64,000 nucleotides of DNA from an uncultured delta proteobacterium (lineage in GTDB: Bacteria > Myxococcota > UBA727 > VGSZ01): NCBI GenBank assembly GCA_963775425.1, contig CAVZJB010000009.1:272616-336615 (forward strand), read 5' to 3'. Each line of letters begins with the position of its first letter. Position 1 is the stretch's first letter. Under the pieces are notes generated by a model. The model saw only the letters and a program-made list of their open reading frames with translations. It made no database searches and was not told the DNA's origin. Below, piece after piece: positions 12,373 through 64,000 of this stretch. The position numbers were made by a program, and so were the translations under genes.

Positions 12373-12635
12373 GCGGCCAGCGTAGCCCGCCTCCGCCGCG
12401 GACGACGAGCGCTTCCGGCACGGGATCGTCTCGAGTCACGACGTCTGTGCGCGCCCACGCGAGCGCGCCGGCGTCCGCACCGCGCGCGCCATGTTCGTGC
12501 CGTGACCGTGCGAGGGCACCTGGCCCCGTTCGCCGCGCTGCTCCTGTGCGGCTGCCCGCTCGACGTGTCCCTGCAGGGGAAGCCGTGCGACGCCGGCCAC
12601 GCCTGCGCCGGCGGCTTCCGCCTGGCGCCGTAGGG

Positions 12636-14304
<1,669 letters not shown>

Positions 14305-34126: not shown

Positions 34127-34247
34127 GCGTCGTCTCCGGTCCGTGGTGATGGTGCCGACAAGAGTGCCTCGACGGGACGATAGCGCGCCGGCAAGCTCGA
34201 GCGGACGGTCCGGCGTCGCGCGCGTCCCCCTCGTTGGCCTCGAGGCG

Positions 34248-36652: not shown

Positions 36653-36709
36653 GGCCGGGTTGTCGGCCGCGCCGGGGGAAATGACAAGGCACTATCGCGT
36701 GCGGACGGG

Positions 36710-38164: not shown

Positions 38165-39807
38165 GGCGCCCCCGCGGCCGCGGGGCCGAAGGCGAAGTCG
38201 GCGGTGACCTCGCCGCCGGCGGGCACCGTCACGTGCACCGTCTTCTTGCCGCCGGCGTCGCTCCACGCGGTGAGCTCGACGTCGCCGGCGGGGACGCCGT
38301 CGAGGACGAAGGCCCCGTCGTCCTTGGTGACGGCGAACCACGGGTCGTCGACGACGCCGATGTGGTTGATCATCCACGGGTGGATGTCGCAGCGCGTCTC
38401 CACCATCAGCTCGGGCGCACGGAACACCTTGGTGTCCCGCTGCCCCTGCGCGGGCTGGTTGATGCTGAAGGTGTCGTTGTTTTGCGCCACCGAGCGGATG
38501 TTGTGAAAGACCGGGTCGGTGTTCACGAAGGTGACGGGCTGTCCCACGCGCACGCCGCTCACGCGCGGCTGGTAGAGGCACCCCTTCTGCTCGACGGTGA
38601 CCTCGCCCTGCGGCGCGGGGATGGCGTACTTGTCGACGCCGCCGGTGACGGCGACGAACGCCTCCGCGAGCTTTCCGTCATGAACGACCGCGGCGGGGAT
38701 GGACAGCGGCCCGTCGTGGCCGGCCTCACAGCCGCCGTAGAGCGCCACCTCGCGTGGCGCGGGGACGTCCCCCTGCCATGTGACGCTGCCGCGGATGCGG
38801 CCGGTGGCCGTGATGGGCGTGCCCGTCTTGGCTGCGTTCACGACGGGCGCGGCGCGGTCGTGGTCCGAGGCCAGCGTGCCCGCGACGGACGCGACGATGG
38901 TGACGACGACGAGCGTGCCGAGGAAGCCGAGCATGACCGTGGCCGGCGGGTCCACCTTGTTCATCCACCACTTCACGCCGGCGCCGGCGCAGCAGACCAC
39001 GACGAGGATCACCCAGTTCCACCCGATGGTGGTGCCGGCCACGTGGGCGGCGGCGCCGTAGGTGAACGGGAAGTGGTTGGAGATCATGATGAAGATGACC
39101 GGGTAGGTCATGTAGTGGTTGTGCTTGCTGCGGCGCTTGGCCGAGTACGCCTTGGCCGCGTCGGGCTCCTTGCCCGTCTTCACGCTCTCGACGAGGTTTC
39201 GCTGCGCCGGGATGATGCGCATCCAGACGTTGGCCACCATGCACGTGCCCATCACCGCCGCGGTGTGGATGTACGCCGCGCGGCCCGACAGGAGGTGCGT
39301 GAACGCGAAGGCGATGGCCGCGAGGCCGATGACCGAGATGGCCACCGTGAGCGGCGGGTTCTGCGACGCGGCGCCGGCGAGCCGGGAGGACCACAGGAGG
39401 TCGTAGGCGACCCAAGCGACGACGAGCGTGCCCATGCAGATGGCGGTGGCCACCTGATGCGAGACCACCGGGTGAGCGGCGTCGACGAGGAGGACGCCGC
39501 CGCCGAGGTGGTAGAGCACGATGAGGAGGAAGAAGCCGGTCATCCAGGTGAACGCGGCCTCCCACTTGAACCAGTGAAGCGTCGACGGCAGCGCGCTCGG
39601 CGCCACCAGCTTCTTTTCGACCTCGTAGAAGCCGCCGGAGTGCACCATCCACAGGACTCCCTCGAGCCCCTCCCGCTTCTCCTTGGGCTTCTCCATGTGG
39701 CTGTCGAGCCAATGGAAGAAGATGGACGAGCCGATCCACATGATGCCGGCGATGAGGTGCGCCCAACGCAGGACGAGGTTCAAGCCTTCACTGACGAGCG
39801 GATTCAT
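38161..39807 (-). CDS. puuD: Membrane urate hydroxylase (PuuD-type N-terminal domain) fused to a cupredoxin-like domain and a carboxypeptidase-regulatory-like domain
   Basis: The N-terminus LNLVLRWAHLIAGIMWIGSSIFFHWL plus about 8 TM helices match the PuuD/urate-oxidase-N family. The C-terminus has type-1 copper ligand spacing (VFHNIRS ... CDIHPWM = C-x2-H-x2-M). No CxxCH haem motif anywhere. Confidence 0.75.
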   Translation of the reverse strand: MNPLVSEGLNLVLRWAHLIAGIMWIGSSIFFHWLDSHMEKPKEKREGLEGVLWMVHSGGFYEVEKKLVAPSALPSTLHWFKWEAAFTWMTGFFLLIVLYHLGGGVLLVDAAHPVVSHQVATAICMGTLVVAWVAYDLLWSSRLAGAASQNPPLTVAISVIGLAAIAFAFTHLLSGRAAYIHTAAVMGTCMVANVWMRIIPAQRNLVESVKTGKEPDAAKAYSAKRRSKHNHYMTYPVIFIMISNHFPFTYGAAAHVAGTTIGWNWVILVVVCCAGAGVKWWMNKVDPPATVMLGFLGTLVVVTIVASVAGTLASDHDRAAPVVNAAKTGTPITATGRIRGSVTWQGDVPAPREVALYGGCEAGHDGPLSIPAAVVHDGKLAEAFVAVTGGVDKYAIPAPQGEVTVEQKGCLYQPRVSGVRVGQPVTFVNTDPVFHNIRSVAQNNDTFSINQPAQGQRDTKVFRAPELMVETRCDIHPWMINHIGVVDDPWFAVTKDDGAFVLDGVPAGDVELTAWSDAGGKKTVHVTVPAGGEVTADFAFGPAAAGAP

Positions 39808-40372
39808 CGACGATCTCTTTCGCGCTGAAGGTGTTGTCTGCCCAGGTATGCACGGGCACGCGGCGCGCGTCGAGGAGCGCGGTGCGCACCGGGTGGGCGA
39901 TGGCGCCGTCGGCGCCCGCGACGCCGTAGACGTTGAAGAGCGACGCGAACGCCTCCACCACGTCGGGCGCGCCCGTGGCGAGGGTGAACCCCGCGTCGCC
40001 GGCGACCGCGAAGCGCGCCGCGTACGCGCGCAGCGCCGCCGGCGTGTCCCGCGCCGGATCGAGCGTGACGACGAGGACGCGGGCGCCGTCGCGGCGTGCC
40101 TCGGCGAGCTTCTTCATGGTGAGCGGACACATGGTCTCGACGGGGCAGTGCGTATAGACAAAGCCCACGGCGACGGGCCCGGCGACGTCACCAAGCTCGA
40201 ACGCTTGCCCGTCCTGGTCGACGAGCGGAAACGACGGCACCGGTTGTCCGGGCCGCCACGCGGCGACGTCGGCGCGCCAGGCGTCGTGGCTGCGACAGGA
40301 CGTGAGCGCGAGCGCGGCGCCGAGGAGCGCGGCGCACACCGTCGGCCACGAGGCACGTTCGTCAGGGCGCAC
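39788..40372 (-). CDS. SCO1/SenC-family copper chaperone (thioredoxin fold), probable lipoprotein
   Basis: Motifs: LALTSC lipobox and VGFVYTHCPVETMCP (the CxxxCP copper site). The start is uncertain (GTG 40372 chosen; the track ORF starts at 40495). It overlaps the puuD start by 20 nt. Confidence 0.7.
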   Translation of the reverse strand: MRPDERASWPTVCAALLGAALALTSCRSHDAWRADVAAWRPGQPVPSFPLVDQDGQAFELGDVAGPVAVGFVYTHCPVETMCPLTMKKLAEARRDGARVLVVTLDPARDTPAALRAYAARFAVAGDAGFTLATGAPDVVEAFASLFNVYGVAGADGAIAHPVRTALLDARRVPVHTWADNTFSAKEIVDESARQ

Positions 40373-40560
40373 CTGGGGGCCAATAGCGGCGATGACGGCG
40401 GGTGCCAACGGCGGGGGCGCGCGGCGCCGTGAGGTCGGAGGCAACACGAGCGCGCCCACGCTGTGACGGTAGCGCGCCCGAGCGGGCGTGGGCATTGACG
40501 GTCCGTCCGGCGGGAAGGAAACGGGCTGATGATCCTCTGCACGCCTTCCCCGGTCGGCCC

Positions 40561-41922
40561 ATGAGCAACACGTCGCTGCCCCCCACGTTCCTCGCCGAGA
40601 CCACCGCGCGCCTGCGGGCCGCCAACGAGCCCGTCACCCGTCGCTTCGTCGGCGAGAGCGCCTCACGCCAGCCGGTGCACACGGTCTACGGCGGGGCGCA
40701 GCTCTTCAAGAAGGACGCGGCGTGGAAGCTCGGCCGCGGCGCGCTCAAGGCGCTCGACGAGTACGCGCCCTCGGCGGACGTGTTCGCGCGCGCCGCGGGC
40801 ATCCGCGCCGACGTCGCCGGCGTCGTGTACGAGCGCGTGCGCGAGAAGCTCGTGCGCGAGCCCGTCGAGGACATGCGCATCGACTTCGAGGACGGCTACG
40901 GCAACCGCCCCGACGACGAAGAAGACGCCGAGGCGGTGCGCTGCGCGCACGAGGTGGCCGCCGGCATGAAGGATCCGCGCGCGCCGGGCAGCGGGCTGCC
41001 GCCGTTCATCGGCATTCGCATCAAGACCTTCTCGGACGAGCTGTTCGCGCGCGCGGTGCGCACCCTCGACCTTTTCGTGAGCGCGCTCGTCAAAGACACC
41101 GGCGGTAAGCTGCCGGACGGCTTCGTCATCACGCAGCCGAAGATCACCACGGCCGAGCACGTCGCCGTCCTCGCCGACGTCCTCGAAGCGCTGGAGGAGC
41201 GCCTCGGCCTGTCGTCGGGGGCGTTGCAGCTCGAGGTGATGATCGAGGCGACGCAGTCCATCCTGGACATCGACGGCAGGATCGCCCTGCCCAGGATCCT
41301 CGACGCCGCGCGCGGCCGCTGCGTGGCCGCGCACTTCGGGACCTACGACTACACCGCGTCCAACAACATCACCGCCGCGTACCAGTCCATGGAGCACGCG
41401 GTCTGCGACTTCGCCCGCACCTTCATGTTGCAGGCGTACGCGGGCACGGGCGTGTGGCTCAGCGACGGAGCCACCAACGTGATGCCGGTGCCGGTGCACC
41501 GCGCGGCCGACGGCCACGCGCTCACCGCCGCGCAGGTCGCCGAGAACGTGTCGGTGGTGCACGCGGCGTGGGCGCTGCACGTGCGCCACATCCGCCACTC
41601 GCTGGAAAACGGCTACTACCAGGGCTGGGACCTCCACCCCGCGCAGCTCCCCACGCGCTACGGCGCGCTCTACGCGTTCTTCCTCGAGGCGCTCCCCGCG
41701 GCGAGCGAGCGCCTGAAGAACTTCGTGCAGAAGGCCGCGCAGGCCACGCTCGTGGGCGACGTCTTCGACGACGCCGCCACGGGCCAGGGCCTGTTGAACT
41801 TCTTCCTGCGCGGCATCAACTGCGGCGCCCTCAAGGAGGACGAGGCCCTCGCCACGGGCCTCACCCTCGACGAGCTGCGCGGCCGCAGCTTCGTCAAGAT
41901 CTTGAAGAACCGTCGGGGTTGA
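40561..41922 (+). CDS. HpcH/CitE-like (aldolase / citrate-lyase beta superfamily) TIM-barrel protein
   Basis: Start MSNTSLPP. Motifs: RIDFEDGYG (compare the DLEDAV motif of CitE), FIGIRIKTF, LQLEVMIEATQSI, HFGTYDY. The assignment is at superfamily level only. Confidence 0.55.
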   Translation: MSNTSLPPTFLAETTARLRAANEPVTRRFVGESASRQPVHTVYGGAQLFKKDAAWKLGRGALKALDEYAPSADVFARAAGIRADVAGVVYERVREKLVREPVEDMRIDFEDGYGNRPDDEEDAEAVRCAHEVAAGMKDPRAPGSGLPPFIGIRIKTFSDELFARAVRTLDLFVSALVKDTGGKLPDGFVITQPKITTAEHVAVLADVLEALEERLGLSSGALQLEVMIEATQSILDIDGRIALPRILDAARGRCVAAHFGTYDYTASNNITAAYQSMEHAVCDFARTFMLQAYAGTGVWLSDGATNVMPVPVHRAADGHALTAAQVAENVSVVHAAWALHVRHIRHSLENGYYQGWDLHPAQLPTRYGALYAFFLEALPAASERLKNFVQKAAQATLVGDVFDDAATGQGLLNFFLRGINCGALKEDEALATGLTLDELRGRSFVKILKNRRG

Positions 41923-41932
41923 AGGCAGCGGC

Positions 41933-42943
41933 ATGCCCGTCGCCAATCCGGTCCAGTTCGCCGTGGTGCGCGAGGATCCCGTCGTCGAGCTCTCGCTCCT
42001 CGCGGACGTCCGGCGCGGCGCTTCGACCGCGGCGCTGCTCATCGCCTCGGGCGGCTGCACGGCGCTCACGGTCGCGGCGGCGCGCCCCGACGTGGCGCTC
42101 ACGCTGCTCGATGCGAACCCCGCCCAGCTCGCCCTCGTCGAGCGAAAGCGCGCCGCGCTCGCCGCGCACGCGCCGGGGTCGGCCGCGCGGCGGCGCACCT
42201 TCGGCGTCGACGCGGACGACGCGGCGTCCCTGTCGGGGTGCGGCAACTTCGAGTCGCTGTTTCGCGGGCTGCGCGCCGTGCTCGATGACCTGGTGATGCC
42301 GGCGGCCGAGCGGCGCGCGCTCCTCGCGGGCGACGGCGGCGCGGGCGCGCTCACCGGCAACAGGTACTGGCCGGTGGCGTTCGAGATGTTCTTCTCCGAC
42401 GCCATGCTCGAGGCCATGTTCGGGCCCGAGGCCACGCAGCACGCGGACAAGGGCTCGTACCCGGCGTACTTCCGCCGCGTCGTCGAGCGCGCCCTCGCCG
42501 GCGGCGCGGGGGGAGCGCCGGCGCGCGCGAACCCGTATCTTCACCACGTGTTGCTCGGCCACTACCTCGACGGCGCTCTGCCGGCGTTCCTGGAGCGCAT
42601 GACATGCGCGCAGGCGGAGGGCGCGCGCTTCAATCTCGTCGAGGGGAGCGTGACGCGGGGGCCGTCCTTCTCGGCGTTCGACCTCGTGTCGCTGTCGAAC
42701 CTCTTCGACTGGATGAGCGACGACGACGTGGCCGCGACGTGCGCGCGCCTCGCCGCCGAGTCCAAGCCCGGCGCCGTCGTGGTCTTGCGCCAGCTCAACA
42801 ACCGCGCTCCGGTCGAGCGCTTCTTCGGCGACGCGTTCCGCTTCGACGACGCACGCGCCGCGGCGCTCCTCGCCCGCGACCGCAGCATGTTCTACGAGCG
42901 CCTCGTGGTCGGCACGCGGGTCGCCGGCGGGGGTGGCGCATGA
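41933..42943 (+). CDS. BtaA-like (DUF3419-type) class I SAM-dependent enzyme
   Basis: Motifs: FAVVREDP, LLIASGGCTALT, LLDANPAQLALVE, YWPVAFEMFFSD, NPYLHHVLLGHY, SLSNLFDWMSDDD. It starts 10 nt after the upstream stop. Confidence 0.55.
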   Translation: MPVANPVQFAVVREDPVVELSLLADVRRGASTAALLIASGGCTALTVAAARPDVALTLLDANPAQLALVERKRAALAAHAPGSAARRRTFGVDADDAASLSGCGNFESLFRGLRAVLDDLVMPAAERRALLAGDGGAGALTGNRYWPVAFEMFFSDAMLEAMFGPEATQHADKGSYPAYFRRVVERALAGGAGGAPARANPYLHHVLLGHYLDGALPAFLERMTCAQAEGARFNLVEGSVTRGPSFSAFDLVSLSNLFDWMSDDDVAATCARLAAESKPGAVVVLRQLNNRAPVERFFGDAFRFDDARAAALLARDRSMFYERLVVGTRVAGGGGA

Positions 42944-47828: not shown

Positions 47829-50800
47829 CTAGATCGCGTCGGCCGCGCCGACGTCGGCCTGCGGGGCGGCGGCGAGGGAGCGCGGACGCGCGGGGCGCTT
47901 GTCGACGACCTCGTCGATGAGGCCCGTGATGCACGTGGCCATGCGCTCGATGTTCTCGCTCCGAAACAGCTCGAGGTGCGAGCCCTTCACCGTGACGACG
48001 TCGATGCGACCCTTGACCCAGCGGCGCCAGCCGTTGGTGGGATCGTCCATGCGCGTGGCCGGCCAGCGGAAGGGATGCTCGGCGACAAAGAGCAGGAGCG
48101 GCGCCGTCTCTCCGTTCTGTTTGGGCATGTACGCGAGCTGGGCCTGCGTGAGGATGGCCCAGATCTGCTTCATGCGATCTTCGCGCTCACGGTCGGCGCC
48201 GTCGACGGCGGGCGCGAGCAGCTCGCCGAGGCCGAGCTTGAAGAGCAAGCGGCGGCGCACGTTGTCGATGCGATCCTTCACGTAGTTGAAGCGGCCCAAG
48301 GCGTCACGCCTGCGCAGCTCCTCGACATGCGCGAGCGCGCGCTCCATGCGCGGAAGCTTCTCGGGATAGCCGGGCGCGAAGGCGTCGAACGCGACGATGG
48401 CGCCGACGTTCTTCCCGCGCCGGCGCAGCCGGTGCGCGAGCTCGTAGGCGACCATGGCCCCGAAGCTGTAGCCGCCGACGACGAGCTGCTGCCCCGACAG
48501 CCCGCGCGCGTCGAGCTCGCGCTCGTAGGCCGCGGCGATCTCCTCGACCGACTCGCGTGGCAGGTCTTCGCCGTCGGCGCCGATGGCGGTGAAGGCGTAG
48601 ACGGGTTGATCGGGCCCGAGCCGCTGCGCGAGCTCGCGAAAGATGAACACCTGGCCGCCCGCGCCGGACACGATGAGCAGCGGCGGGCGCGTCCCGTGCG
48701 CGTTCAACACGACGAGGTGGCTCTGCGGCTCGGACGTCGCGCGCTCGCCGTCGCCGAGGCTCTGCGCGAGCGCGGCGATGGTGGGCTTCGCCAGGATGCG
48801 CGACAGCGGGACGTTGATGCCCAGCTCCTTCTTCAGCCGCGACACCACCACGACCGCGAGCAGCGAGTGGCCGCCCATGTCGTCGAAGAAGTCGTCGTGA
48901 ACACCCACCGGCGCGCGCAAGACGTCGCTCCACAGGGCGACGAGCTTCTCCTCGAGCGGGGTGCGCGGTGGGGACAGCGCGCGCCGCTCGAGGACGAGCG
49001 CCGGATCAGGGAGCGCCGCGCGGTCGAGCTTGCCGTTGGAGGTGACCGGCAGGCGGTCGAGCCGCACCAGGGCCGAAGGCACCATGAAGTCCGGCAGCGC
49101 CGCAGCCACCGCCGCCTTCAACGACGGCGCGTCGAAGGGCTGCGCCGCATGGAGCGGCACGACGTACGCCACCACGGCCTTCGCGCCGGAGGCGTCGGGG
49201 CGCGCGACGCACACGACGTCGCGCACGCCGGGCTGCTTGCGCAGCACGGCTTCGATCTCGCCGAGCTCGACGCGGAAGCCGCGCACCTTCACCTGGAAGT
49301 CGGCGCGCCCGAGGAACTCCATGGTGCCGTCGTCCCAGAAGCGCGCGAGGTCGCCCGTCTTGTAGATGCGCTCGCCCGGGAGGAACGGATCGGGGAGGAA
49401 CCGCTCGGCGGTGAGCTCCTCGCGGTTGAGGTAGCCGTCGGCGAGGCAGAGGCCGCCGATGTAGAGGTCGCCGGCGATGCCGGTGGGCGCCGGGCGCATG
49501 TGGCGATCGAGGATGTAGTAGCGGGCGTTGTCGATGGGACGGCCGTAGGGGATGGAGCGCCACGACGGGTCTACGTGGCCGATGCGGTGGAAGTTCGACC
49601 AGATGGCGGCCTCGGTGGCGCCGCCGAACGACACGGGTTCCACACCCTCGAACACCTCGCGCAGGTGGTCGGGCAGCTTGACCGGGATCCAGTCGCCGGA
49701 CATGAGCGCGAGCCGCAGCGTCGACGACGGCGCGCGCGCCGGAAAGAACGGCGCGAGCCGCGCCAGCGCCGGCGGCGCGGAGTCCCAGATGGTGATGCCG
49801 GGCGCGGTGAGCTTCTTCACCAGGAGCTCCGGCTCGCGCAGCGTCTCCACCGAAGCGATCTCGACGACGGCGCCGGCGCCGAGCGCGCCGAAGACGTCGT
49901 AGACGGACAGGTCGAAGCTCGGGGACGTGACGAACAAGAGCTTGTCGCGCGGGCCGACGCTGAAGGTGCGGTTCACCCACTGCAGCGTGTTCGTCACCGC
50001 GCGGTGCGTGAGCACCACGCCCTTGGGCCTGCCGGTGCTGCCCGACGTGTAGATGGCGTAGCTCACGTCCCTCGAGGCGGCGACGCGCGCGGGCCGGGTG
50101 TCGGGAGCGCCCTGCACGTCCGCGCCGTCGACGCCCAGGATGGGGATGCCCGGCGGCGGCGCGCCGTCGCCGTGGCCCCACGGCAGCGACGACGACGTCA
50201 CCACCGCCACCGCTCGCGCGTCTTCGACCATGAAGCGCGCGCGCTCTTCGGGGTAGCCCGGGTCCACGGGCACATATGCCGCACCGGACTTGGCGATGCC
50301 GATCATCGTGGTGACGAGGTCGAAGTTGCGGTCGAGCAGGAACGCCACGTATTGGCCGGGCTTCACCCCGCGGGCGCGCAGCGCGTGGGCGAGGCGGTTG
50401 GCGCGCCGCTCCACCTCGGCGAAGGTGAGCGTCTCTCCCTCGAATTCCAGGGCGACGTCGTCAGGCCGCGCGTCCACCTGCTCCTCGAAGAGCGTGTGGA
50501 TGAGGATCTCGTCTGAAAACGGCGCGGCCGTGTCGTTCCAGCCGAAGACCTGCCGCTTGCGGGTCTCGTCGTCGAGGAGGTCGACGCGCGCGAGGGGCTT
50601 TTCGGGATCCGCCGCGACCTGCGCGCACACCGCGGAGATCTGCTCCACCAGCGCGCGCACGCGGGGCGTGTCGACCGCGCCTTCGTCGACGACGAGCGAC
50701 GCCTGTCCGCCGCTCAGGCGCAGCGCCAGGACCGCGCCCGGCGGGAGGGCCTCGCCGTCGTCGAGCAGGACGGCCACGCACGACAGCGCGCTCGTCTGGA

Positions 50801-52202
50801 GCGCGCGGCTGGGGGAGAGCACAGGGGTACGCGCGACGAGGTCGACGAGGTAGCCGCCGCGGCGGCGGAGCTCGTCGAGGTCCTTTCGCACCGCGCGCAC
50901 CAGCTCCGCGAAGCCGCGCCCCGCGTCCAGGCCGACGAACAACGGGACGGTGGGCGCCAACAAGGCCGAGGCGGCTTCGAAGCGCTTGCGCACGGGGCCG
51001 TCTACGAGGGCGACGCACAGCTCGTCGCGGTCGCACAGCGTGGCCATGGCGAAGGAGAACGCGGCGGTGGCTGCGGCCTCGATGTCATCGGCGAAGCGCG
51101 AGCGCAGCTCGGGCAGGGGGAGCGAGTGCACCGACGTTTGTCCCGGCGGCCCCGCCGCCGACAAGAACGGCACCGCCGGCGACTCCGCGCGCGCGAGGCG
51201 CTTGACGAAGAACGGCTCGGCCTCGGCGATCTCGCGGGTGATCGCCGCGCGGCCCTCGCGTCCGGGATCGACGATCTGTCCACCGGGCTTGAGTCCCAGG
51301 TAGTGCAGCGCCTCCTCGACGGAGATCTCGACTCCGCTCAGGAGCGACGTCCGCTCCACGCGCAGCGCCCCCTGGGCGCACGCCACCACGAAGGAGCGGG
51401 CGTCGGCCTCGAGGACGGTGCCCGGGCCCCCGCCCGCGCCGGACACCGACGCCTCACGCACGACCACCGCGCGCTCCCCCGCCGACGTCTTGTGCACGAG
51501 CTTGGCGAGGGCGAAGCGGTTGATGTACGGGCCCCAGTCGCAGGCGCGCACGAGCCGGTCGAGCTCGGCGGCCGTCTGGCTCCAGTCGAGAGTGGCCAGG
51601 GCCGCGGGGCGATCGTGACGCGAGAAGATCAGCCGCTCGCCGCCGGGGTTCGTCCCCTTCGGCTGGGGGATGCCCGGCGGCGCGCCGTGCTCGAGCTTCT
51701 CGACGAGAGACTTGAAGGCGTCGAGCGCGAGCGCGGCGTTCTTGATGTTGAGGGAGACGGAGCTCTCGCGCTCCTCGATGTCGACGTCGCGGCGCTCGAG
51801 GATGTCGCCGGTGTCGATGCCGTCGGCGAGGCGATGCCACACCACGGCGTGCGTGCGCTCGCCGCGCAGGAGCGCCCACGCCGAGCCGTGAATGCCCGCG
51901 TAGCGGGGCAGCGGTCCGTCGTGGAAATTGACGGCGTCGATGCGCGCCTTGGTGAAGTGCTCGGCCTTGAGGATGGCGGGGTACGTGATGGACAAGAGGA
52001 CGTCGATGTCGCCGGCGGCCATGAGCTCACCGATGCGCGCGCGCCCGTAGACCGGCACGTCCTTGCCCCGCGCCCACTCGGCGAGGGCCGGGTTGAGCGT
52101 GACGAGGCCGGCGAGGGCGTGCCCCCGCTCCAGGAGGAGCTCGCCGCACGAGACGGCGAGCGGCTCTTCTCCGAGGACGAGGCAGCGAAGGTGCGCGGGC
52201 AC
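47829..52202 (-). CDS. Single-module NRPS: formyltransferase domain, C-domain remnant, adenylation domain, PCP, thioesterase
   Basis: Fmt-like N-terminus: NFHDGPLPRYAGIHGSAW...GIDTGDIL (His codon 51921-23). A C-terminal half of a condensation fold follows, with no HHxxxDG. A-domain motifs: YAIYTSGSTGRPKGV, FDLSVYD, MSGDWIP, FGGATEAAIW, YKTGDLAR, GRADFQVKVRGFRVELGEIE, NGKLDR. PCP: FFDDMGGHSL (Ser codon 48864-66). TE: GYSFGA (Ser codon 48465-67). Confidence 0.9.
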   Translation of the reverse strand: MPAHLRCLVLGEEPLAVSCGELLLERGHALAGLVTLNPALAEWARGKDVPVYGRARIGELMAAGDIDVLLSITYPAILKAEHFTKARIDAVNFHDGPLPRYAGIHGSAWALLRGERTHAVVWHRLADGIDTGDILERRDVDIEERESSVSLNIKNAALALDAFKSLVEKLEHGAPPGIPQPKGTNPGGERLIFSRHDRPAALATLDWSQTAAELDRLVRACDWGPYINRFALAKLVHKTSAGERAVVVREASVSGAGGGPGTVLEADARSFVVACAQGALRVERTSLLSGVEISVEEALHYLGLKPGGQIVDPGREGRAAITREIAEAEPFFVKRLARAESPAVPFLSAAGPPGQTSVHSLPLPELRSRFADDIEAAATAAFSFAMATLCDRDELCVALVDGPVRKRFEAASALLAPTVPLFVGLDAGRGFAELVRAVRKDLDELRRRGGYLVDLVARTPVLSPSRALQTSALSCVAVLLDDGEALPPGAVLALRLSGGQASLVVDEGAVDTPRVRALVEQISAVCAQVAADPEKPLARVDLLDDETRKRQVFGWNDTAAPFSDEILIHTLFEEQVDARPDDVALEFEGETLTFAEVERRANRLAHALRARGVKPGQYVAFLLDRNFDLVTTMIGIAKSGAAYVPVDPGYPEERARFMVEDARAVAVVTSSSLPWGHGDGAPPPGIPILGVDGADVQGAPDTRPARVAASRDVSYAIYTSGSTGRPKGVVLTHRAVTNTLQWVNRTFSVGPRDKLLFVTSPSFDLSVYDVFGALGAGAVVEIASVETLREPELLVKKLTAPGITIWDSAPPALARLAPFFPARAPSSTLRLALMSGDWIPVKLPDHLREVFEGVEPVSFGGATEAAIWSNFHRIGHVDPSWRSIPYGRPIDNARYYILDRHMRPAPTGIAGDLYIGGLCLADGYLNREELTAERFLPDPFLPGERIYKTGDLARFWDDGTMEFLGRADFQVKVRGFRVELGEIEAVLRKQPGVRDVVCVARPDASGAKAVVAYVVPLHAAQPFDAPSLKAAVAAALPDFMVPSALVRLDRLPVTSNGKLDRAALPDPALVLERRALSPPRTPLEEKLVALWSDVLRAPVGVHDDFFDDMGGHSLLAVVVVSRLKKELGINVPLSRILAKPTIAALAQSLGDGERATSEPQSHLVVLNAHGTRPPLLIVSGAGGQVFIFRELAQRLGPDQPVYAFTAIGADGEDLPRESVEEIAAAYERELDARGLSGQQLVVGGYSFGAMVAYELAHRLRRRGKNVGAIVAFDAFAPGYPEKLPRMERALAHVEELRRRDALGRFNYVKDRIDNVRRRLLFKLGLGELLAPAVDGADREREDRMKQIWAILTQAQLAYMPKQNGETAPLLLFVAEHPFRWPATRMDDPTNGWRRWVKGRIDVVTVKGSHLELFRSENIERMATCITGLIDEVVDKRPARPRSLAAAPQADVGAADAI

Positions 52203-52237
52203 GTCGTCGGATTATCACGACCTGCGGCGCCCGCGCA

Positions 52238-58552: not shown

Positions 58553-58599
58553 CACCGCACGTTCTCGTCGAGGCCGTGTGCGCGCCGCATGGCGGGAGC

Positions 58600-59721
58600 A
58601 TGCCATCGGCCGGCGCGGCGCGGAAACGAGAAGCGCGCGGTGTCCGCGACGGCGGCGGGGCGTCGGGCACGGCGTGGTACGCTCGCGCGGTGGGGCACGG
58701 CACCGTCGTCGCGATCGTGGCCGTCGTCGTCGCCGGCGAGGGCTGCGCGGGCTGCAACGGCACGTTCACCCTGTCGTGCGCCGCCTCCACCGACTGCCCC
58801 GACGGCCTGTCCTGCGCCCCCGACGACATCTGCCGCCCCCATGACGCCGGCTCCGGCGACGGCGGCCCCCCCGTCGACACAGGCCCCACGGGCGACGGCG
58901 GCTCCCCCGGCGACGGCGGCCCCGTCGACGGCGGGCCCCCCGTCGACGGCGGCGAGGGCGAGGGAGAAGGAGAGGGCGAGGGGGAAGGCGAGCAGAGCGC
59001 CGCGAGCTGCGCCGCCGCGCTCGCCGCCGACCCGGCCGCGCCGAGCGGCATCTATCGCATCGGCGGCGCCGGCGTCGAGTGCGACATGACCACAGCGGGC
59101 GGCGGCTGGGCGCTCTTGTTCCGCTTCGACGCGCAGACGGACGACTGCCCCGCGGGGCTCGTCCGCGACGCCGCCAGCGGGGGCTGCGGACGCCCGCTGG
59201 ACGCGGCGCAGACGTCGCTGTTCCTGCCCGCGCCCGAGCCCTTCACGGAGCTGCGCGGCGAGGTCCGCGCGCTCGGCTTCGGCTCGCCCGACGCGTTCTT
59301 CGACACCGCGCCCACCATCGACGGCAACTACGGCGACGGCATCAGCTTCACCGTGGACTCGCCGCGCGTCCACGTCTTCACCCTCGCCCACGCCATCGCC
59401 GACGGCGCGAGCGGGTTCACCGTCCATCGCTGTCCGTGCGCGGGCGGAGATCCCCCGCCGGGCTTCGTCGGCACCGCCTACCTCTGCGAGGCGGCCACCA
59501 CCGCGTTCGTCGGCGGCGCGCGCACGCTCGACACCACCGACGTCCTGTGGGACGGGGCCGATCTCTTCCCGGGATGCGAAGGCGCGCCCGAGTCCGCGCC
59601 CGACTTCCAGGTCGCGCTCGCGGCCGAGGACCCCGGCCCCGTCGAGTTGCGCATCCTCCACAACGAGGTGAGCAGCGACGAGGACACGTACATCACCCGC
59701 GCGGAGCTCTGGGTGCGCTGA
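58600..59721 (+). CDS. Secreted/anchored protein with Pro/Gly-rich and (Gly-Glu)n spacers and a fibrinogen-related C-terminal domain
   Basis: Hydrophobic anchor VVAIVAVVVAG, a Cys knot and GEGEGEGEGEGEGE. Then SCAAALAADPAAPSGIYRIGGAGVECDMTTAGGGWALLFRF (FReD signature C...SG.Y.I....V.CDM...GGGW). The start is uncertain (GTG 58576, ATG 58600 or GTG 58690). Confidence 0.65.
   Translation: MPSAGAARKREARGVRDGGGASGTAWYARAVGHGTVVAIVAVVVAGEGCAGCNGTFTLSCAASTDCPDGLSCAPDDICRPHDAGSGDGGPPVDTGPTGDGGSPGDGGPVDGGPPVDGGEGEGEGEGEGEGEQSAASCAAALAADPAAPSGIYRIGGAGVECDMTTAGGGWALLFRFDAQTDDCPAGLVRDAASGGCGRPLDAAQTSLFLPAPEPFTELRGEVRALGFGSPDAFFDTAPTIDGNYGDGISFTVDSPRVHVFTLAHAIADGASGFTVHRCPCAGGDPPPGFVGTAYLCEAATTAFVGGARTLDTTDVLWDGADLFPGCEGAPESAPDFQVALAAEDPGPVELRILHNEVSSDEDTYITRAELWVR
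58951..58992. repeat. In-frame (GGCGAG)n-type tract
   Basis: ggcgagggcgagggagaaggagagggcgagggggaaggcgag encodes GEGEGEGEGEGEGE. Confidence 0.7.
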
Positions 59722-59989
59722 CATACGCGCGCTGCGCGGCCTGCGCCGACGACGCGCGGCCGAGCTGCTCCCGCAGCGTCCGCTCCGCCGCGCCGGCGGC
59801 GACGGTGCACGCGTGGACGAGCCGGAGCAGCACCGTCCGGTCCTCGAGCGTGAGGCGGCAGAGGCCGGCCTGCGCGCACGCGGTGGTCGCGGCCTCGAGC
59901 GCTTCGCCCGCACCGACGACGTCGCCCTCGGCGAGCTTCTGCTGTGCGTGCGCGAGCCGATCGCGCAGGTGCTCCTCGACGCGCGTCAT
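59693..59989 (-). CDS. Small hypothetical protein translationally coupled to fliS (FliT-like position)
   Basis: ATGA overlap with the fliS stop. 98 aa, helical and Ala/Leu/Glu-rich (MTRVEEHLRDRLAHAQQKLAEGD...). Its 3' end overlaps the convergent gene by 29 nt. The function is inferred from position only. Confidence 0.4.
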   Translation of the reverse strand: MTRVEEHLRDRLAHAQQKLAEGDVVGAGEALEAATTACAQAGLCRLTLEDRTVLLRLVHACTVAAGAAERTLREQLGRASSAQAAQRAYVSAPRAPRG

Positions 59990-60363
59990 GGTTGCGGTCG
60001 CCCGGCGCGCGCGACCGCCTCTTCGAACGCCTCGGCGATCGGGTTGAAGGTGCGACGCGCGTCGTCGAGGGCGGCGCGGTCGCCGCGCAACGAGACGTAG
60101 AGCCGGGTGAGAACGAAGCCGTAGACGTCGTCGAGCATGGTGCACAGCTCGGGGGCCTTCGACGGATCGAGCGTGGACCGGAGCTCGTGCACGATGTCGA
60201 TGGCCTTGCGCACCGGCGTCGCCGCCTGCGCGGCGCGACCGAGGGCGAGCTCGCCGTCGGCGAGGAACATCTGCTTGCGCGCACCCGCGAGCAAGAGGAG
60301 CAGCACGCGCTCCTTCGACGCAGTGGCCGTCTGAGTTTCTTGATAGCGCGCCGACGGCAACAT
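59986..60363 (-). CDS. fliS: Flagellar export chaperone FliS
   Basis: ARYQETQTATASKERVLLLLLAGARKQM...VRKAIDIVHELRSTLDP...LDDVYGFVLTRLY matches the FliS four-helix pattern. ATG 60363 lies 6 nt after GGAGG and overlaps the fliD stop. Confidence 0.8.
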   Translation of the reverse strand: MLPSARYQETQTATASKERVLLLLLAGARKQMFLADGELALGRAAQAATPVRKAIDIVHELRSTLDPSKAPELCTMLDDVYGFVLTRLYVSLRGDRAALDDARRTFNPIAEAFEEAVARAGRPQP

Positions 60364-61700
60364 CACCCACCTCCGTTGTTCTTGCTCGCGGTCTCCTGGC
60401 TGGTGAGGAAGTTGCCGATGGCCTTCAGGCCGCTCAGCACCTTCTCCATCGCCGCGAACTGCGCGACGAGTCGCGCGCGGTACTGATCCGCGCGGTCCTG
60501 CAGTTGCGTGATCTGATCGCCGACGCGCTTCTTCTTGTCCGCGAGGCCCTGGCTGCGCACCGTGAGCGCGCCGTTGACCGAGTCGGTGAACGCGTTGACG
60601 AGGTCGTCGGCGGCGGGCTTGAGCCCGGCGAGGATGCGATCGGCGGCGCCGGGATCCGACGCGACCGCCTTGTCGAACGCCGCGTCGTCGATGGTGACCT
60701 TGCCGTCGCGGTCGCTCTTGAGCCCCAGGTCCGCGAGCGTACGCATCCCGGTCGAGCCCACCGCCGTCGTCAACAGCGCCTGCATGCGCGCCTGCACCAG
60801 GCGCATGGTGGGGTCGCCGCCGAGGGTCTTCGTGCGGTCCGTGTTGGCGTGGATGTCGAGCTCACCCTGCACCGCGCCGACGATGGTGTTGTAGGCGTCG
60901 ACGAGCTTCTGCAGCGAGGCTTTGGTCTGGTCGCCGTCGTCGGCGATGACGATGTCCTCGGGACCGGTGCTGACCTGTTTGAGCGAAAGCGTGGCGCCGG
61001 GGAGGGCGTCGTCGATCTCGTTGGTGCGGCGCTCGAAGGCGAGGCCGTCGAGGGTGAGCTTGGCGTTTTGCGCCGTCACCACCGTCGAGAAGCCGAGCGC
61101 GTCGGCGGTGGTCCCCGAGAGCGTGAGGGCGCTGTCGGGCGTGGAGCCGACCTCGAAGCCCGACGTCGTGCGCGCCACGCTCAGGTAGTCGCTGGTGCCG
61201 TCGTTGAGGACGTTGGCGGTGACGGGCGCGCCGCTCGCGCGGATGGCGGAGGCGAGGTCACCGAGGCTCATGCCGTCGGTCACGTCGATGTCGTAGCCGG
61301 TGCCGTCGGCGTCGATGTGCAGCGTGCCTGCCGACAGGAGGGCCGACGTGCTCTGCGCCGCGCTCCGGCTCTTGGCCGCTTGCGCGAGCTGCGAGACCTC
61401 GAGGGTGGTGCGGCCGGCGCTCGCGCCGGGGGACGCGGTGACGTCGGCGGCGGCGGGCGCCTGCGCGACGCGCGCGCCGTGCGCGCCGGTGTCGACGAGA
61501 CCGTGGAGCGCGGTCTGGAAGGCGAGGAGGTTCGAGCGGAGCGACCCGATCGACGAGATCTGCACGTCGATGGCGGTCTGGCTCTGCTGGAGGGTGGCGA
61601 TCGGCTTGCTTTGCAGAGAGACGAGCTGATCCACGATGGACGCGGTGTCGATCCCGGACGCGAGGCCGCTCGCTTGGAATGACGGAATCGTCGTGGACAT
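60363..61700 (-). CDS. fliD: Flagellar filament cap protein FliD (HAP2)
   Basis: Start MSTTIPSFQASGLASGIDTASIVDQLVSLQSKPIATLQ. The C-terminus reads ...RLVAQFAAMEKVLSGLKAIGNFL. Confidence 0.85.
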   Translation of the reverse strand: MSTTIPSFQASGLASGIDTASIVDQLVSLQSKPIATLQQSQTAIDVQISSIGSLRSNLLAFQTALHGLVDTGAHGARVAQAPAAADVTASPGASAGRTTLEVSQLAQAAKSRSAAQSTSALLSAGTLHIDADGTGYDIDVTDGMSLGDLASAIRASGAPVTANVLNDGTSDYLSVARTTSGFEVGSTPDSALTLSGTTADALGFSTVVTAQNAKLTLDGLAFERRTNEIDDALPGATLSLKQVSTGPEDIVIADDGDQTKASLQKLVDAYNTIVGAVQGELDIHANTDRTKTLGGDPTMRLVQARMQALLTTAVGSTGMRTLADLGLKSDRDGKVTIDDAAFDKAVASDPGAADRILAGLKPAADDLVNAFTDSVNGALTVRSQGLADKKKRVGDQITQLQDRADQYRARLVAQFAAMEKVLSGLKAIGNFLTSQETASKNNGGG

Positions 61701-61729
61701 GGCGCTCTCCAAGAGGGGTGAACGAGGAC

Positions 61730-61770
61730 GAAGCCGCCGCACGGATCACCCGGGTCCGTGCGGCGGCTTC
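61730..61770 (-). terminator. Strong hairpin between fliC and fliD (terminator/attenuator candidate)
   Basis: Perfect 15-bp stem: gaagccgccgcacgg (61730-44) pairs with ccgtgcggcggcttc (61756-70), with an 11-nt loop. It starts 9 nt after the fliC stop. No clear U-tract. Confidence 0.55.
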
Positions 61771-61778
61771 AGGAGCGC

Positions 61779-62645
61779 TCAGCCGAGGAGCTTGAGGGCG
61801 AGCTGGGGCGCCTGGTTCGCCTGGGCGAGCACCGAGACGCCGGCCTGCACGAGGATCTGCGCGCGGCTCATCTCCGCCGTCTCCGAGGCGACGTCGACGT
61901 CGCGGATGCGGCTGTTGGCGGCGGACACCGACTCGGACGCGCTGGCGATGGTCGACAGCGCGCTCGTGAGGTGGTTGGCGGAGGCGCCGAGGTCGGCGCG
62001 GAAGCCGGAGACCTCGTTGATGGCCTGGTCGATGACCGCGAGCGCGGACTGCGACTGCGTCGCGCTGGTGGCGAGGTCGGCCGCGCCGCCCGTCTTCAGG
62101 GTCGCGATCGCCGAGCCGCCGCCGCCGGTGCCGAGGGCCGCCGTGGTGACCGCCATGCCGGTGGTGTCCACCTTGATGACGTCGTTGGCGGTGCCGCGGA
62201 TGCCGACCTGGAACTGGAACGCCGCCGCGGCGCCGTAGACCTTCACGCCGTTGAACTCGGTGGTGGCGCCGATGCGGTCCACCTCGGCGAGCAGCGAGTC
62301 CGCCTCGCTCTGGATGTAGCCCCGCTCGGTGGTGCCGATGCCGTCCGAGGCCGACTGCATGGCGAGCTCGCGGACGCGGGTGAGGATGTTGGTCACCTCG
62401 TTGAGCCCTGCCTCGGCGGTCTGCGTGACCGAGATGCCGTCGTTGGCGTTGCGCGAAGCCTGGTCATAGCTCTTGAGCTGCGCGGTCATGTTCGCGCTCA
62501 CGCCGAGGCCGGCTGCGTCGTCGGACGCCTTGGTGATGCGGTAGCCGGAGGAGAGCTTGGCGAGCGAGGAATCGAGCGAGCTCTGATTCATCATCAAGCT
62601 GTGCTGCGCGGCGAGGGACGAGAGGTTGCTGCGGATGGACATCAT
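61779..62645 (-). CDS. fliC: Flagellin (short, D0/D1-only type)
   Basis: N-terminus: MSIRSNLSSLAAQHSLMMNQSSLDSSLAKLSSGYRITKASDDAAGL. C-terminus: VASETAEMSRAQILVQAGVSVLAQANQAPQLALKLLG. GAAGGAG ribosome-binding site. Confidence 0.9.
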   Translation of the reverse strand: MMSIRSNLSSLAAQHSLMMNQSSLDSSLAKLSSGYRITKASDDAAGLGVSANMTAQLKSYDQASRNANDGISVTQTAEAGLNEVTNILTRVRELAMQSASDGIGTTERGYIQSEADSLLAEVDRIGATTEFNGVKVYGAAAAFQFQVGIRGTANDVIKVDTTGMAVTTAALGTGGGGSAIATLKTGGAADLATSATQSQSALAVIDQAINEVSGFRADLGASANHLTSALSTIASASESVSAANSRIRDVDVASETAEMSRAQILVQAGVSVLAQANQAPQLALKLLG

Positions 62646-62781
62646 GGCGGGGCTCCTTCTTTCTGCTGAGCATTTCGTTCGTGTGTGCTCACGGAGAGGT
62701 TCGTCACGGCGCGGGCCCTGATTAAGATCTGCGTCGCCGGATCAACCCGCGCGGACGAATTCGCCGCACAAAAGAGCGCAA

Positions 62782-62801
62782 GGACGGAGCGAGCCCCGTC
62801 C
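62782..62801 (-). terminator. Weak rho-independent terminator candidate after flgL
   Basis: The minus strand reads GGACGGggctcgctCCGTCC followed by ttgcgctcttttgtg (6-bp stem, T-rich tail). Confidence 0.35.
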
Positions 62802-62828
62802 TCATCACCGCGGCGCGGACCCGCGGGG

Positions 62829-63708
62829 TCACAGCTTGTCGAGGATGGTGAGCTGGAAGCTCTTGGCGCTCACGGTCAGCGCGGCGTCGAGCGAGCGCTC
62901 GGCGAACGCGAGAATCCGTCGCCGCCTTCGCGATGTCGGCGTCGGTCAGGCCGGCGCGCCTGCCGTCGGCCGCGTCCGCCACGTCGCCCGCGGCGGTCTG
63001 CGCGGCGTCCAGGCCGAGCTCGATGCCGCCGGCGTCGGCGCGGCCGGCGCCGACCTGCGCGATGCCCGAGCGCAGCGTGTCGATGCTCGCGCGCAGCCCC
63101 GTGGTGTCGTTGGTGGACAGCGCGGTGGCCAGGTCGCCGAGGGCCTGGAGGACGTCGACGCCGCCGCCGGCGCCCTTGATGACGACGTCGGCGCGCACGG
63201 ACACGCCCTGCACCACGCCGGGCGCGACCTCGATCTGCCGGACGCCGGCGTCGCCGGTGTAGCTGCCGTCGGCCTGGAACGGGGCCGCGTTGTCGACGGT
63301 GCCGCCCATGACGAAGCGGCCGCCGACGTCGATGTTCAACGCGCTCACGGCTTCGGCCAGCATCTGCGTCGCCTGGCTCGCGGCGCTCGCGCGATCCGCG
63401 CTGTTGTAGGTGCCGTTCGACATCTGGATCGCGAGCTGCTGCGCGCGCGAGAGCGTGTTGATCACCGACGACAGCGCGCCGTCGGCGGCGTTGACGTCGT
63501 CAAGCGCCCGTGACGTCGTGGTCGAGATGCCCGAAGCGCGCACCGCGGCGAAGCGCTCGCGCGCGATCTGCCCCGCGGAGTCCGTCTCCCAGGGGTGCCG
63601 CACGGAGACGCCGGTGGAGGCGCGGTCGGTGGCCTTCTCGTAGCGCTCGCGCGCGGTCTGCGTCGCGGCGTTCGCGTTGGCGAAGATGGAGCTATCAGTG
63701 ACGCGCAC
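62829..63708 (-). pseudogene. flgL: Flagellar hook-associated protein 3 (FlgL), C-terminus displaced by a +1 frameshift (or a sequence error)
   Basis: GTG start (VRVTDSSIF...). After ...GLTDADIAKAATD the frame breaks at 62911-62916. The shifted frame gives LAFAERSLDAALTVSAKSFQLTILDKL and stops at 62829 (conserved flagellin-like C-terminus). The track ORF end at 62722 is a read-through. Confidence 0.8.
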
Positions 63709-63711
63709 GGG

Positions 63712-64000
63712 CTACCTCAACTCCAGGAGGCCTTTGAGCATGTCGTCCGCCGTGGACAACACCTTGCCCACGGCGTCGAACACGCGCTGCGCCTTCGTCA
63801 TCTCGATCATCTCTTCGTCGATGGAGACACCCGACGCCGACTCGCGCAGGGACAACAGTTGATCGCGCGCGGCCGCCGACGCGTCGCGCTCGCTGAGCGC
63901 GCTCCTGGCGACGGCGCCGAAGTCGTCGATGGCGGAGGCGACCGTGCTCACGGTGGCGTCCTCGCCGGCGAGGAGCGCGAGCGCCTGGCTGCCGTCGCCT
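63712..64000 (-). CDS. flgK: Flagellar hook-associated protein 1 (FlgK), C-terminal part; the 5' end lies outside the window
   Basis: ...SLRESASGVSIDEEMIEMTKAQRVFDAVGKVLSTADDMLKGLLELR is the conserved FlgK C-terminus. The frame is open to the window edge. Confidence 0.8.
   Translation of the reverse strand, partial: GDGSQALALLAGEDATVSTVASAIDDFGAVARSALSERDASAAARDQLLSLRESASGVSIDEEMIEMTKAQRVFDAVGKVLSTADDMLKGLLELR

Follow-up and report, generated by a model that had tools for sequence, protein, structure and literature searches.

The six genes at the far end of the window (the whole 64-kb stretch of DNA analysed here) appear to form the distal part of a flagellar cluster that is genuine, from an uncultured, high-GC member of the Myxococcota, with an artefactual frameshift in flgL, a reading to which we give a probability of roughly 0.8. 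Such clusters have been described in this phylum before, and the window adds another of known type.

A late flagellar gene set on the minus strand

As the preliminary description had it, six late flagellar genes lie together on the minus strand (59693-64000): the C-terminus of flgK, flgL, fliC, fliD, fliS and a 98-aa gene. About 4.3 kb of the distal end of the cluster falls inside the window, which ends within flgK. The features are as follows.

63712..64000, minus strand: flgK (hook-filament junction protein 1), C-terminal ~95 residues only; the gene runs past the window end
62829..63708, minus strand: flgL (hook-filament junction protein 2), with a GTG start 3 nt past the flgK stop
62779..62804, minus strand: terminator-like hairpin followed by a T-run, 25 nt past the corrected flgL stop and within the spurious ORF extension
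62700..62726, minus strand: motif resembling a sigma-28 (FliA) promoter, CTTAAT-N13-GTGACGAA, ahead of the fliC ATG by ~55-80 nt
61779..62645, minus strand: fliC (flagellin, 288 aa; D0/D1 regions, short variable region)
61730..61771, minus strand: intergenic stem-loop (17 bp, perfectly paired) separating the fliC stop from the fliD start
60363..61700, minus strand: fliD (filament cap), 445 aa, true start at the ATG at 61700
59986..60366, minus strand: fliS, 126 aa (export chaperone for flagellin), with a start that overlaps the fliD stop
59693..59989, minus strand: orf98, the 98-aa gene, its ATG overlapping the fliS stop as ATGA (translationally coupled)

Pfam and NCBIfam support was strong for five of the six genes, with domain matches far above chance, the exception being the 98-aa gene. 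The FlgK C-terminus matched Flg_bbr_C (E = 2.8e-12, 46.4 bits; cut-off 23), and its best NCBIfam model was TIGR02492 flgK_ends (E = 1.1e-17, profile positions 361-436 of 437). FlgL matched Flagellin_N (E = 1.3e-8) and TIGR02550 flgL (E = 6e-29), and FliC matched both Flagellin_N (E = 3.7e-34, 118.2 bits) and Flagellin_C (E = 1.1e-24, 87 bits) well over the cut-offs. For FliD, matches to FliD_N (E = 1e-18, 67.9 bits), FliD_C (E = 5e-43, 147.7 bits) and Flagellin_IN were obtained, and for FliS a match to Pfam FliS (E = 1.1e-20, 74.5 bits; cut-off 26.7). When compared with their homologues, fliC, fliD, fliS and orf98 are intact and of full length. The 445-aa FliD product matches the deposited protein P0001 at 100% identity; a longer GTG-initiated ORF, starting at 61742, opens within the stem-loop.

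Candidate control elements separate the genes. The hairpin at 62779..62804 is the sole terminator-like site found in 59300-64000, with a fold z-score of only -2.0, which is weak taken alone. The motif upstream of fliC may be regarded as a putative sigma-28 promoter: the pattern CTTAW-N13-16-GMCGAW, which was derived from the related loci and then counted in the same loci, occurs upstream of fliC in 11 of 28 of them, accounting for 11 of its 14 matches in 510 kb, and its single match in the whole window (0.08 expected) is the one upstream of fliC. Compared with a TAAA-like -35 and a GCCGATAA-like -10 element, the -10 element departs from the consensus. The stem-loop at 61730..61771 folds with -41.9 kcal/mol (z = -5.6; none of 200 shuffles was as stable) and probably acts as a terminator or attenuator. 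Transcription of flgK-flgL would thus stop at the terminator past flgL, fliC would have a separate promoter of FliA (sigma-28) type and be read up to a strong hairpin, and fliD-fliS-orf98 would be expressed as a run of overlapping genes with coupled translation. The predicted roles are hook-filament junction for flgK and flgL, filament subunit for fliC, cap for fliD, flagellin chaperone for fliS and, probably, FliT-like chaperone for orf98.

In enterobacteria, the late genes flgKL, fliC and fliDST (class 3) encode the junction proteins, a flagellin whose transcription depends on sigma-28, and a cap protein, with FliS and FliT encoded after the cap gene. By domain matches the window holds the same protein families, in what appears to be the same logic; it differs in that every gene lies collinearly on a single strand, the flagellin is without the large D2/D3 domains, and the similarity to FliT of the third gene, which comes after fliD and fliS, is remote and indirect.

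Single-base insertions at GATC and the reading frame of flgL

That flgL is out of frame as written had been pointed out before, and our analysis agrees: one extra base in the plus-strand sequence GAATC at 62912-62916 (GATC to GAATC) breaks the gene. The ORF as written extends to 62722, and its final 27 residues, ending in ...LAFAERSLDAALTVSAKSFQLTILDKL*, are read in another frame and form an Arg-rich tail, so that the N- and C-terminal flagellin-like helices do not share a single frame, the C-terminal one being off frame. Deletion of one base gives a 292-aa FlgL with its stop at 62831-62829, which can be aligned over its full length with the FlgL proteins of the nearest relatives L014 and L016 and of Anaeromyxobacter (59% identity over 292 aa to the 292-aa protein of L014, 50% to L016 and 46% to Anaeromyxobacter).

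The same kind of lesion was found elsewhere in the window. Four frame-breaking single-base insertions, all GATC to GAWTC, affect flgL, an acyl-CoA synthetase gene, a GIY-YIG nuclease gene and sbcC, and deletion of one base gives back homologue-like proteins at these lesions. They lie at 12714, 23923, 27623 and, in flgL, 62912. The deposited 622-aa ORF P0133 shows that the lesion is present in the public record. As the whole window contains only 21 GAWTC sites, four independent real frameshifts of this one form within 64 kb are implausible. Since an insertion of identical type breaks three unrelated genes, the flgL frameshift, judged from these sequences, most likely stems from a mistake in the public assembly and not from gene decay. 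A systematic miscalling or absence of GATC was rejected, as 305 intact GATC sites are left in the window. The papers found on methylation-linked nanopore errors deal with read errors and substitution bias, not insertions.

Several further candidate lesions were rejected. The GAWTC sequences at 37932 and 39801 are natural sites, the first or second being in frame and the other marking the start of a gene. The minus-strand region 9319-4260 was not accepted as one large gene with more frameshifts; its changes of phase fall where a small, complete ORF, a stop codon and a start of lipoprotein type are located. GC3 phase changes at 34.7 kb and 43.7 kb resemble gene boundaries. An unbiased GC3-phase scan of the window gave no further convincing frameshift.

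Host lineage, relatives and competing explanations

The host genome is placed in the Myxococcota, distant from every cultivated species, because homologues of two non-flagellar genes, acyl-CoA synthetase and sbcD, point there, in line with the myxobacterial host assumed earlier. Named acyl-CoA synthetase matches were from Myxococcota (73% identity), MAGs of Polyangiaceae (68-70%) and the genera Myxococcus, Cystobacter and Corallococcus (64-66%); among the top 120 matches listed, all named ones were Myxococcota except two Comamonas-labelled records, which we take to be mislabelled. The nearest named match of SbcD was a Myxococcota MAG with 62% identity, matches below this value (e.g. near 50%) being taxonomically mixed. 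The part of the window scanned by ORF showed neither rRNA nor ribosomal-protein genes. The extreme GC content noted in the preliminary description was found again (0.69-0.81 in 2-kb windows), and of the myxobacteria-type hallmarks that it listed, TSP_3 matches were recovered, weak as were those to MtsC-like proteins, whereas the Myxococcus cysteine-rich-repeat model gave no match in the subset of window ORFs scanned.

The nearest relatives of the block are loci of uncultured Myxococcota, L014 (JGI 3300036768) and L016/L017 (ENA ERZ272585xx). Related loci were compared by tblastn without composition correction; with correction, fliC was missed in most of them. Identity to L014 is 81% for FliC (full length), 59% for FlgL, 58% for the part of FlgK in the window, 57% for FliD, 52% for FliS and 42% for orf98. 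FliC is 67% identical to that of L016 and 53-56% to two Anaeromyxobacter flagellins, and FliS is 47-52% identical to the proteins of L014, L016 and Anaeromyxobacter. Order and spacing from flgK to the small ORF are the same in L014 and L016, including the overlapping fliD/fliS/small-ORF junctions. Their flgL, and that of L017, is intact (292-293 aa), unlike that of the window. Upstream of the block L014 and L016 carry fliA, a fliJ-like gene, flgF, flgG, flgH, flgI, an M23 peptidase gene, flgM and flgN. Downstream, L014 and L016/L017 have HDOD and oxidoreductase genes, whereas the window has genes for a fibrinogen-like-domain protein and a GT2 glycosyltransferase. A GT2 gene adjoins the Anaeromyxobacter flagellar cluster too. 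The GT2 neighbour was rejected as a conserved flagellin-modification partner, its homologues being absent from all compared loci.

Cultivated myxobacteria had been described beforehand as gliders without flagella, which does not hold for Anaeromyxobacter: A. dehalogenans 2CP-C has a 55.7-kb flagellar cluster, published in 2008, and strain K is reported to swim; swimming is rarely observed in 2CP-C (PMC2330069). Flagellar assembly genes are also known from uncultured Myxococcota MAGs (bioRxiv 10.1101/2021.07.06.451402), and FliD is already annotated in many NCBI records from Myxococcaceae, Archangiaceae and Myxococcota MAGs. In Anaeromyxobacter sp. PSR-1 (L098/L099) the order is flgF-flgG-x-flgH-flgI-M23-flgM-flgN-flgK-flgL-fliC-fliD, of which flgK-flgL-fliC-fliD is common to the window. 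Its flagellins are short as well (278-279 aa, compared with 288 in the window), and its FlgL has 294 residues, compared with 292 after correction. Beyond fliD the two differ: Anaeromyxobacter has an extra 117-aa ORF, a second flagellin copy and fliS after the latter, unlike the compact fliD-fliS-orf98 order of the window. Identity between the proteins is only 45-56%. The window host belongs to a different, uncultured lineage.

Among the three explanations offered earlier, a flagellated lineage is best supported. If the block were instead a relic or had recently become a pseudogene cluster, the flgL frameshift would be real, the C-terminal D0 helix would be gone, no filament would form on the hook and the block would be on its way to loss as in fruiting myxobacteria. 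The frameshift does stand in the sequence and swaps the last 27 residues of FlgL for an Arg-rich tail, and most cultivated Myxococcota are without flagella, which implies repeated loss in the phylum (PMC2330069). Nevertheless, this frameshift is the sole basis for calling the genes relics and is one of the four insertions of identical type, others of which hit sbcC and the acyl-CoA synthetase gene, and the remaining genes, the promoter motif and the terminator are still in place, so that decay appears unlikely. A use other than motility, in which the proteins would build a filament or secretion apparatus serving adhesion, predation or protein export, is the least probable of the alternatives considered. 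Myxococcota do have non-flagellar type III systems, some of them linked to predation (PMC12403147); FlgK, FlgL, FliC, FliD and FliS, however, are filament-specific and not injectisome parts, so that filament, junction, cap and chaperone genes leave the earlier suggestion of another secretion or filament role without support. Moreover, the block of the relatives is contiguous with fliA, flgM, flgN and rod and L/P-ring genes, and an Anaeromyxobacter strain has been seen to swim (PMC2330069).

A recent import from a flagellated donor outside the myxobacteria seems very improbable. Thomas et al. found the best matches of Anaeromyxobacter flagellar genes spread over several phyla, in a comparison that predates other known myxobacterial flagellar homologues (PMC2330069), and a peptide-pattern scan of genome contigs listed Thermoleophilia loci right after Myxococcota; as that scan needs exact peptide patterns, its list order is no ranking. 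After P0001 the next-best FliD matches are 47-57% identical, and among the 120 matches listed those named by organism are Myxococcota, 'Deltaproteobacteria' MAGs or Anaeromyxobacter (39-56%), with the named close relatives all from Myxococcota, whereas FliD of the Thermoleophilia and Phycisphaerae loci is only 27-32% identical. Gene order is identical to that of Anaeromyxobacter, and the GC (0.705-0.707) and GC3 of the block equal those of the rest of the window. The cluster is of a type common to Anaeromyxobacter and many uncultured Myxococcota, and vertical inheritance within the phylum, without recent import, is its simplest explanation. If the flgL frameshift is an assembly error, we predict that this organism can assemble a flagellar filament. 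The genes for its basal body, export gate, motor and FliA would lie outside the window, and a complete apparatus and motility are likewise predictions.

The orf98 family and flagella in the Myxococcota

Direct profile searches assigned orf98 to no Pfam or NCBIfam family, and its Myxococcota-type relatives likewise gave no FliT match; an 18-bit match to PExPT-CTERM was rejected as spurious. A phmmer search against 1.84 billion representatives returned 6 matches only, and a profile search of PDB sequences gave nothing beyond designed helical proteins and comparable noise. Conservation of position was more informative: an ORF of 88-115 aa lies either right at the fliS stop or up to 40 nt away from it in about 25 loci, about a dozen of which share the 4-nt overlap with fliS seen for orf98, and all aligned family members terminate in an R-A-x-x-A-Y-type motif. 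The 91-aa ORF located two genes past fliD in Anaeromyxobacter also belongs to this family (42.5 bits to profile A3). When the family was compared with a syntenic family of Thermoleophilia type, hhalign gave a probability of 86% (E = 4.9e-6). Pfam FliT (PF05400) was matched only by the Thermoleophilia-type syntenic ORFs and L096, with E-values of 2.6e-6 to 8.5e-3 that fall under the gathering score of 29.5. An AF2 model of orf98 showed a three-helix protein (pLDDT 76). As far as profile comparison and gene position tell, orf98 is part of a syntenic family that is remotely similar to FliT, and it is a probable divergent FliT-like export chaperone. It would be a candidate for the FliT reported missing in Anaeromyxobacter.

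The lesson for annotation is more useful than the biological gain. As the flgL 'pseudogene' belongs to a set of four GATC to GAWTC insertions within 64 kb, it is unsafe to call genes of this assembly relics until the motif-specific error has been corrected, and the same caution possibly extends to other assemblies made in the same way. For the phylum, the window represents one more deep-branching uncultured lineage with flagellar genes and supports the proposal of 2008 that the myxobacterial ancestor was flagellated. We tentatively propose two linked ideas, which taken jointly stand slightly below an even chance: that the 88-115-aa ORFs after fliS or fliD across the Myxococcota, including that of Anaeromyxobacter, are FliT-type FliD chaperones too divergent for current profiles, and that a complete sigma-28-regulated flagellar system is widely kept in uncultured high-GC Myxococcota. 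If true, swimming would go back to the ancestor of the Myxococcota and still be common among them, with losses mainly in the cultivated fruiting lineages.

Late flagellar genes, their relatives and their host

Six genes, all on the minus strand, lie in the final 4.3 kb of the window. They are the late flagellar set proposed in the preliminary description, and domain matches were obtained for five of its members:

63712–64000, minus: flgK, C-terminal ~95 residues (Flg_bbr_C, E=2.8e-12; flgK_ends, E=1.1e-17)
from GTG at 63708, minus: flgL (Flagellin_N, E=1.3e-8; TIGR02550, E=6e-29)
61779–62645, minus: fliC, 288 aa (Flagellin_N, E=3.7e-34; Flagellin_C, E=1.1e-24)
start ATG 61700, minus: fliD, 445 aa (FliD_N, FliD_C, Flagellin_IN)
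59986–60366, minus: fliS (E=1.1e-20)
59693–59989, minus: orf98, 98 aa, its ATG overlapping the fliS stop as ATGA

Translation of fliD from ATG 61700 gave a 445-aa product identical to the deposited protein P0001; this start was taken instead of the GTG of a longer ORF, since that GTG falls within a hairpin. Convergent with the block, and overlapping orf98 by 29 nt at its 3' end, lies a gene (58576–59721, plus) for a secreted Cys-rich protein in which a (GE)n linker occurs together with a YCDxxxxGGGW domain of the bacterial fibrinogen-like type (NF040941, E=2e-10).

A search with FliD led to 746 homologues, and among the matches listed every organism-named one was from Myxococcota: Myxococcaceae, Archangiaceae, Archangium, 'Myxococcota bacterium' and 'Deltaproteobacteria bacterium' MAGs, and Anaeromyxobacter sp. 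PSR-1 (45%). The closest loci were L014 (FliD 57%, FliC 81%) and L016/L017 from uncultured Myxococcota, in which an array of fliA, a fliJ-like gene, flgF, flgG, one further gene, flgH, flgI, an M23 peptidase gene, flgM and flgN continues into flgK, flgL (292–293 aa), fliC (276–315 aa), fliD, fliS and a small ORF of 93–95 aa. The order from flgF to fliD is the same in the cultivated Anaeromyxobacter sp. PSR-1, where a 117-aa ORF, a 91-aa ORF and a second flagellin gene precede fliS. Thermoleophilia and Phycisphaerae loci from the genome scan were just 27–32% identical. Therefore, from the named FliD relatives, the gene order and the low identity of outside loci, this is the Myxococcota type of flagellar cluster. 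Comparison of the block with the window and its relatives gave no signal of recent import in composition or similarity; GC is 69–81% across the whole window, as extreme as first described, and the block is not distinct in it.

The acyl-CoA synthetase (12436–14304) had, among the matches listed, named homologues from Myxococcota only (a Myxococcota MAG, 73%; Polyangiaceae MAGs, 68–70%; Myxococcus, Cystobacter, Corallococcus, Hyalangium, Archangium and Stigmatella, 64–66%), save two Comamonas-labelled records that are presumably mislabelled. For SbcD the nearest named relative was a Myxococcota MAG (62%), with mixed taxonomy among lower matches. As no relative exceeded ~74% identity in these protein searches, the host belongs to an uncultured lineage far from cultivated myxobacteria. 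The block is a genuine part of a late flagellar operon; its type was known from Myxococcota before, while the lineage is new and uncultured. Of the myxobacterial hallmarks suggested earlier, TSP3 lipoproteins found weak support, while no Myxococcus-type cysteine-rich repeat was found in the window ORFs scanned.

Other gene groups were also observed. At 33803–42943 lies a purine/urate degradation group with hydroxyisourate hydrolase, an allantoicase-OHCU decarboxylase fusion, an allantoinase-like amidohydrolase, a membrane urate oxidase (Urate_ox_N) with a CarboxypepD_reg tail, a DUF6986 protein similar to malate synthase/HpcH and a DUF3419 protein. A 1460-aa single-module NRPS-like protein (47829–52211, minus) combines an N-terminal formyltransferase with adenylation, PCP and thioesterase domains, and asparagine synthase and GNAT genes adjoin it directly upstream on the opposite strand. 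The 616-aa protein at 9320–11170 (minus) includes a cysteine protease domain of the calpain family (Peptidase_C2, E=5e-23), a type not often seen in bacteria.

The 183-nt flgL–fliC spacer holds CTTAAT-N13-GTGACGAA at 62726–62700, a putative, sigma-28-like promoter motif for fliC. CTTAW-N13-16-GMCGAW matched only here in the window (0.08 expected) and ≤160 nt upstream of fliC in 11/28 related loci, i.e. 11/14 matches in 510 kb, an enrichment that is indicative only as the pattern was derived from those same loci. More distant loci had ...GCCGAA, nearer the classical sigma-28 -10 element. Next after fliC, 3' of its stop, comes a perfect 17-bp stem (-41.9 kcal/mol, z=-5.6), which would fit strong transcription of the flagellin gene, partly insulated from fliD-fliS-orf98.

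Single-base insertions at GATC

FlgL as written ends in an Arg-rich tail, and its true C-terminus (...LAFAERSLDAALTVSAKSFQLTILDKL, then stop) lies in a different frame, which bears out the out-of-frame flgL reported before. The break is a single extra base in GGATTCTCG (minus-strand reading), where relatives imply GATC. Deletion of one base restored a 292-aa FlgL aligning end to end with those of L014 (59%), L016 (50%) and Anaeromyxobacter (46%); the corrected stop is at 62831–62829, with the region's only terminator-like hairpin within 25 nt 3' of it. The same lesion, GATC to GAATC or GATTC, breaks the frame of four unrelated minus-strand genes:

12714–12718, gene on minus: acyl-CoA synthetase (CAGAATCCC)
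23923–23927, gene on minus: small GIY-YIG nuclease
27623–27627, gene on minus: sbcC N-terminus
62912–62916, gene on minus: flgL (plus-strand GAATC)

Deleting one base restored a homologue-like protein in all four. The acyl-CoA synthetase has its conserved IPRTSTGKF motif in the shifted frame, and the corrected 555-aa query covered homologues at 98–100%; the deposited ORF P0133 has 622 aa with a shifted tail, compared to 531–576 aa in all homologues, so the lesion is present in the public assembly. The corrected nuclease matched Pfam GIY-YIG positions 1–75/78 across the 23923 site (E=1.1e-16), and the corrected start of sbcC, VRILAIRGANLASLKGGFAVDLAQPPLCHLGLFAIAGPVGSGKST, is 4 nt away from the stop of sbcD. 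sbcC itself (24057–27700, minus) has the GC maximum of the window (79–81%) and long spurious ORFs on the opposite strand.

All 21 GAATC/GATTC sites of the window were examined, and an unbiased GC3-phase scan recovered the same four lesions and no other convincing frameshift in the window; phase changes at 4260–9319 (minus) were rejected as frameshifts and attributed to gene boundaries. That region gave no strong family matches, only weak TSP_3 and MtsC-like repeat matches, and contains a complete ~115-aa ORF, two ORFs that share a frame and are divided by a stop codon at 7949, and, near 6700, a lipoprotein-type start. Intact GATC occurs 305 times in the window. As 4/4 lesions fall on a motif whose 21 sites of 5 nt make up ~0.16% of the 64,000-nt window, the coincidence is not due to chance.

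The lesions look like a consensus or basecalling error specific to this motif, in which GATC methylation may play a part. The literature describes nanopore errors at modified bases (e.g. PMC11610603); the reports found speak of mismatches and a substitution bias and not of insertions. The preliminary description had considered the flagellar genes possible relics because flgL is out of frame. This frameshift is poor evidence for decay, since the identical lesion affects three non-flagellar genes, and an assembly error is the best explanation for the apparent flgL pseudogene.

orf98 and flagella in Myxococcota

orf98 had no direct family match and just 6 matches in 1.84 billion representatives. 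An 88–115-aa ORF starts at or ≤40 nt from the fliS stop in ~25 fetched loci, about a dozen with the identical 4-nt overlap, and those that were aligned have two stretches in common, L..aL..gD near the N-terminus and an R-A-x-x-A-Y motif near the C-terminus. Syntenic Thermoleophilia-type members and L096 match Pfam FliT (E=2.6e-6 to 8.5e-3, below gathering score), and the Myxococcota-type profile matched the Thermoleophilia-type profile with 86% probability (E=4.9e-6, 95 columns). An AF2 model of orf98 has three helices (pLDDT 76); fold and PDB-sequence searches led to non-specific matches. On balance we slightly favour orf98 being a divergent FliT-like chaperone for FliD.

That cultivated myxobacteria lack flagella, as had been assumed, holds for the fruiting model species and not for the phylum: Anaeromyxobacter dehalogenans 2CP-C has a 55.7-kb flagellar cluster, swimming was reported for strain K, and a flagellated myxobacterial ancestor was proposed (Thomas et al., 2008; PMC2330069). 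Flagellar assembly genes were also reported in uncultured Myxococcota MAGs (Murphy et al., bioRxiv 10.1101/2021.07.06.451402). Not found in Anaeromyxobacter in 2008 were fliT, flgN, fliJ, flgA, flgJ and fliK (PMC2330069). Two genes past fliD, the Anaeromyxobacter 91-aa ORF (L098:11709–11984; NCBI GCA_049201065.1) matched A3, the profile of the orf98 family, over its full length (42.5 bits, with high compositional bias and a very small search set); the 117-aa ORF directly before it had no family match. As an orf98-family member in a genus listed as missing fliT, the 91-aa ORF is a candidate for this gene. Taken jointly, it is possible (probability roughly 0.45) that swimming has been widely retained in uncultured Myxococcota, accompanied by an unrecognised FliT family; if orf98 is FliT, one gap in the 2008 Anaeromyxobacter list would be filled.
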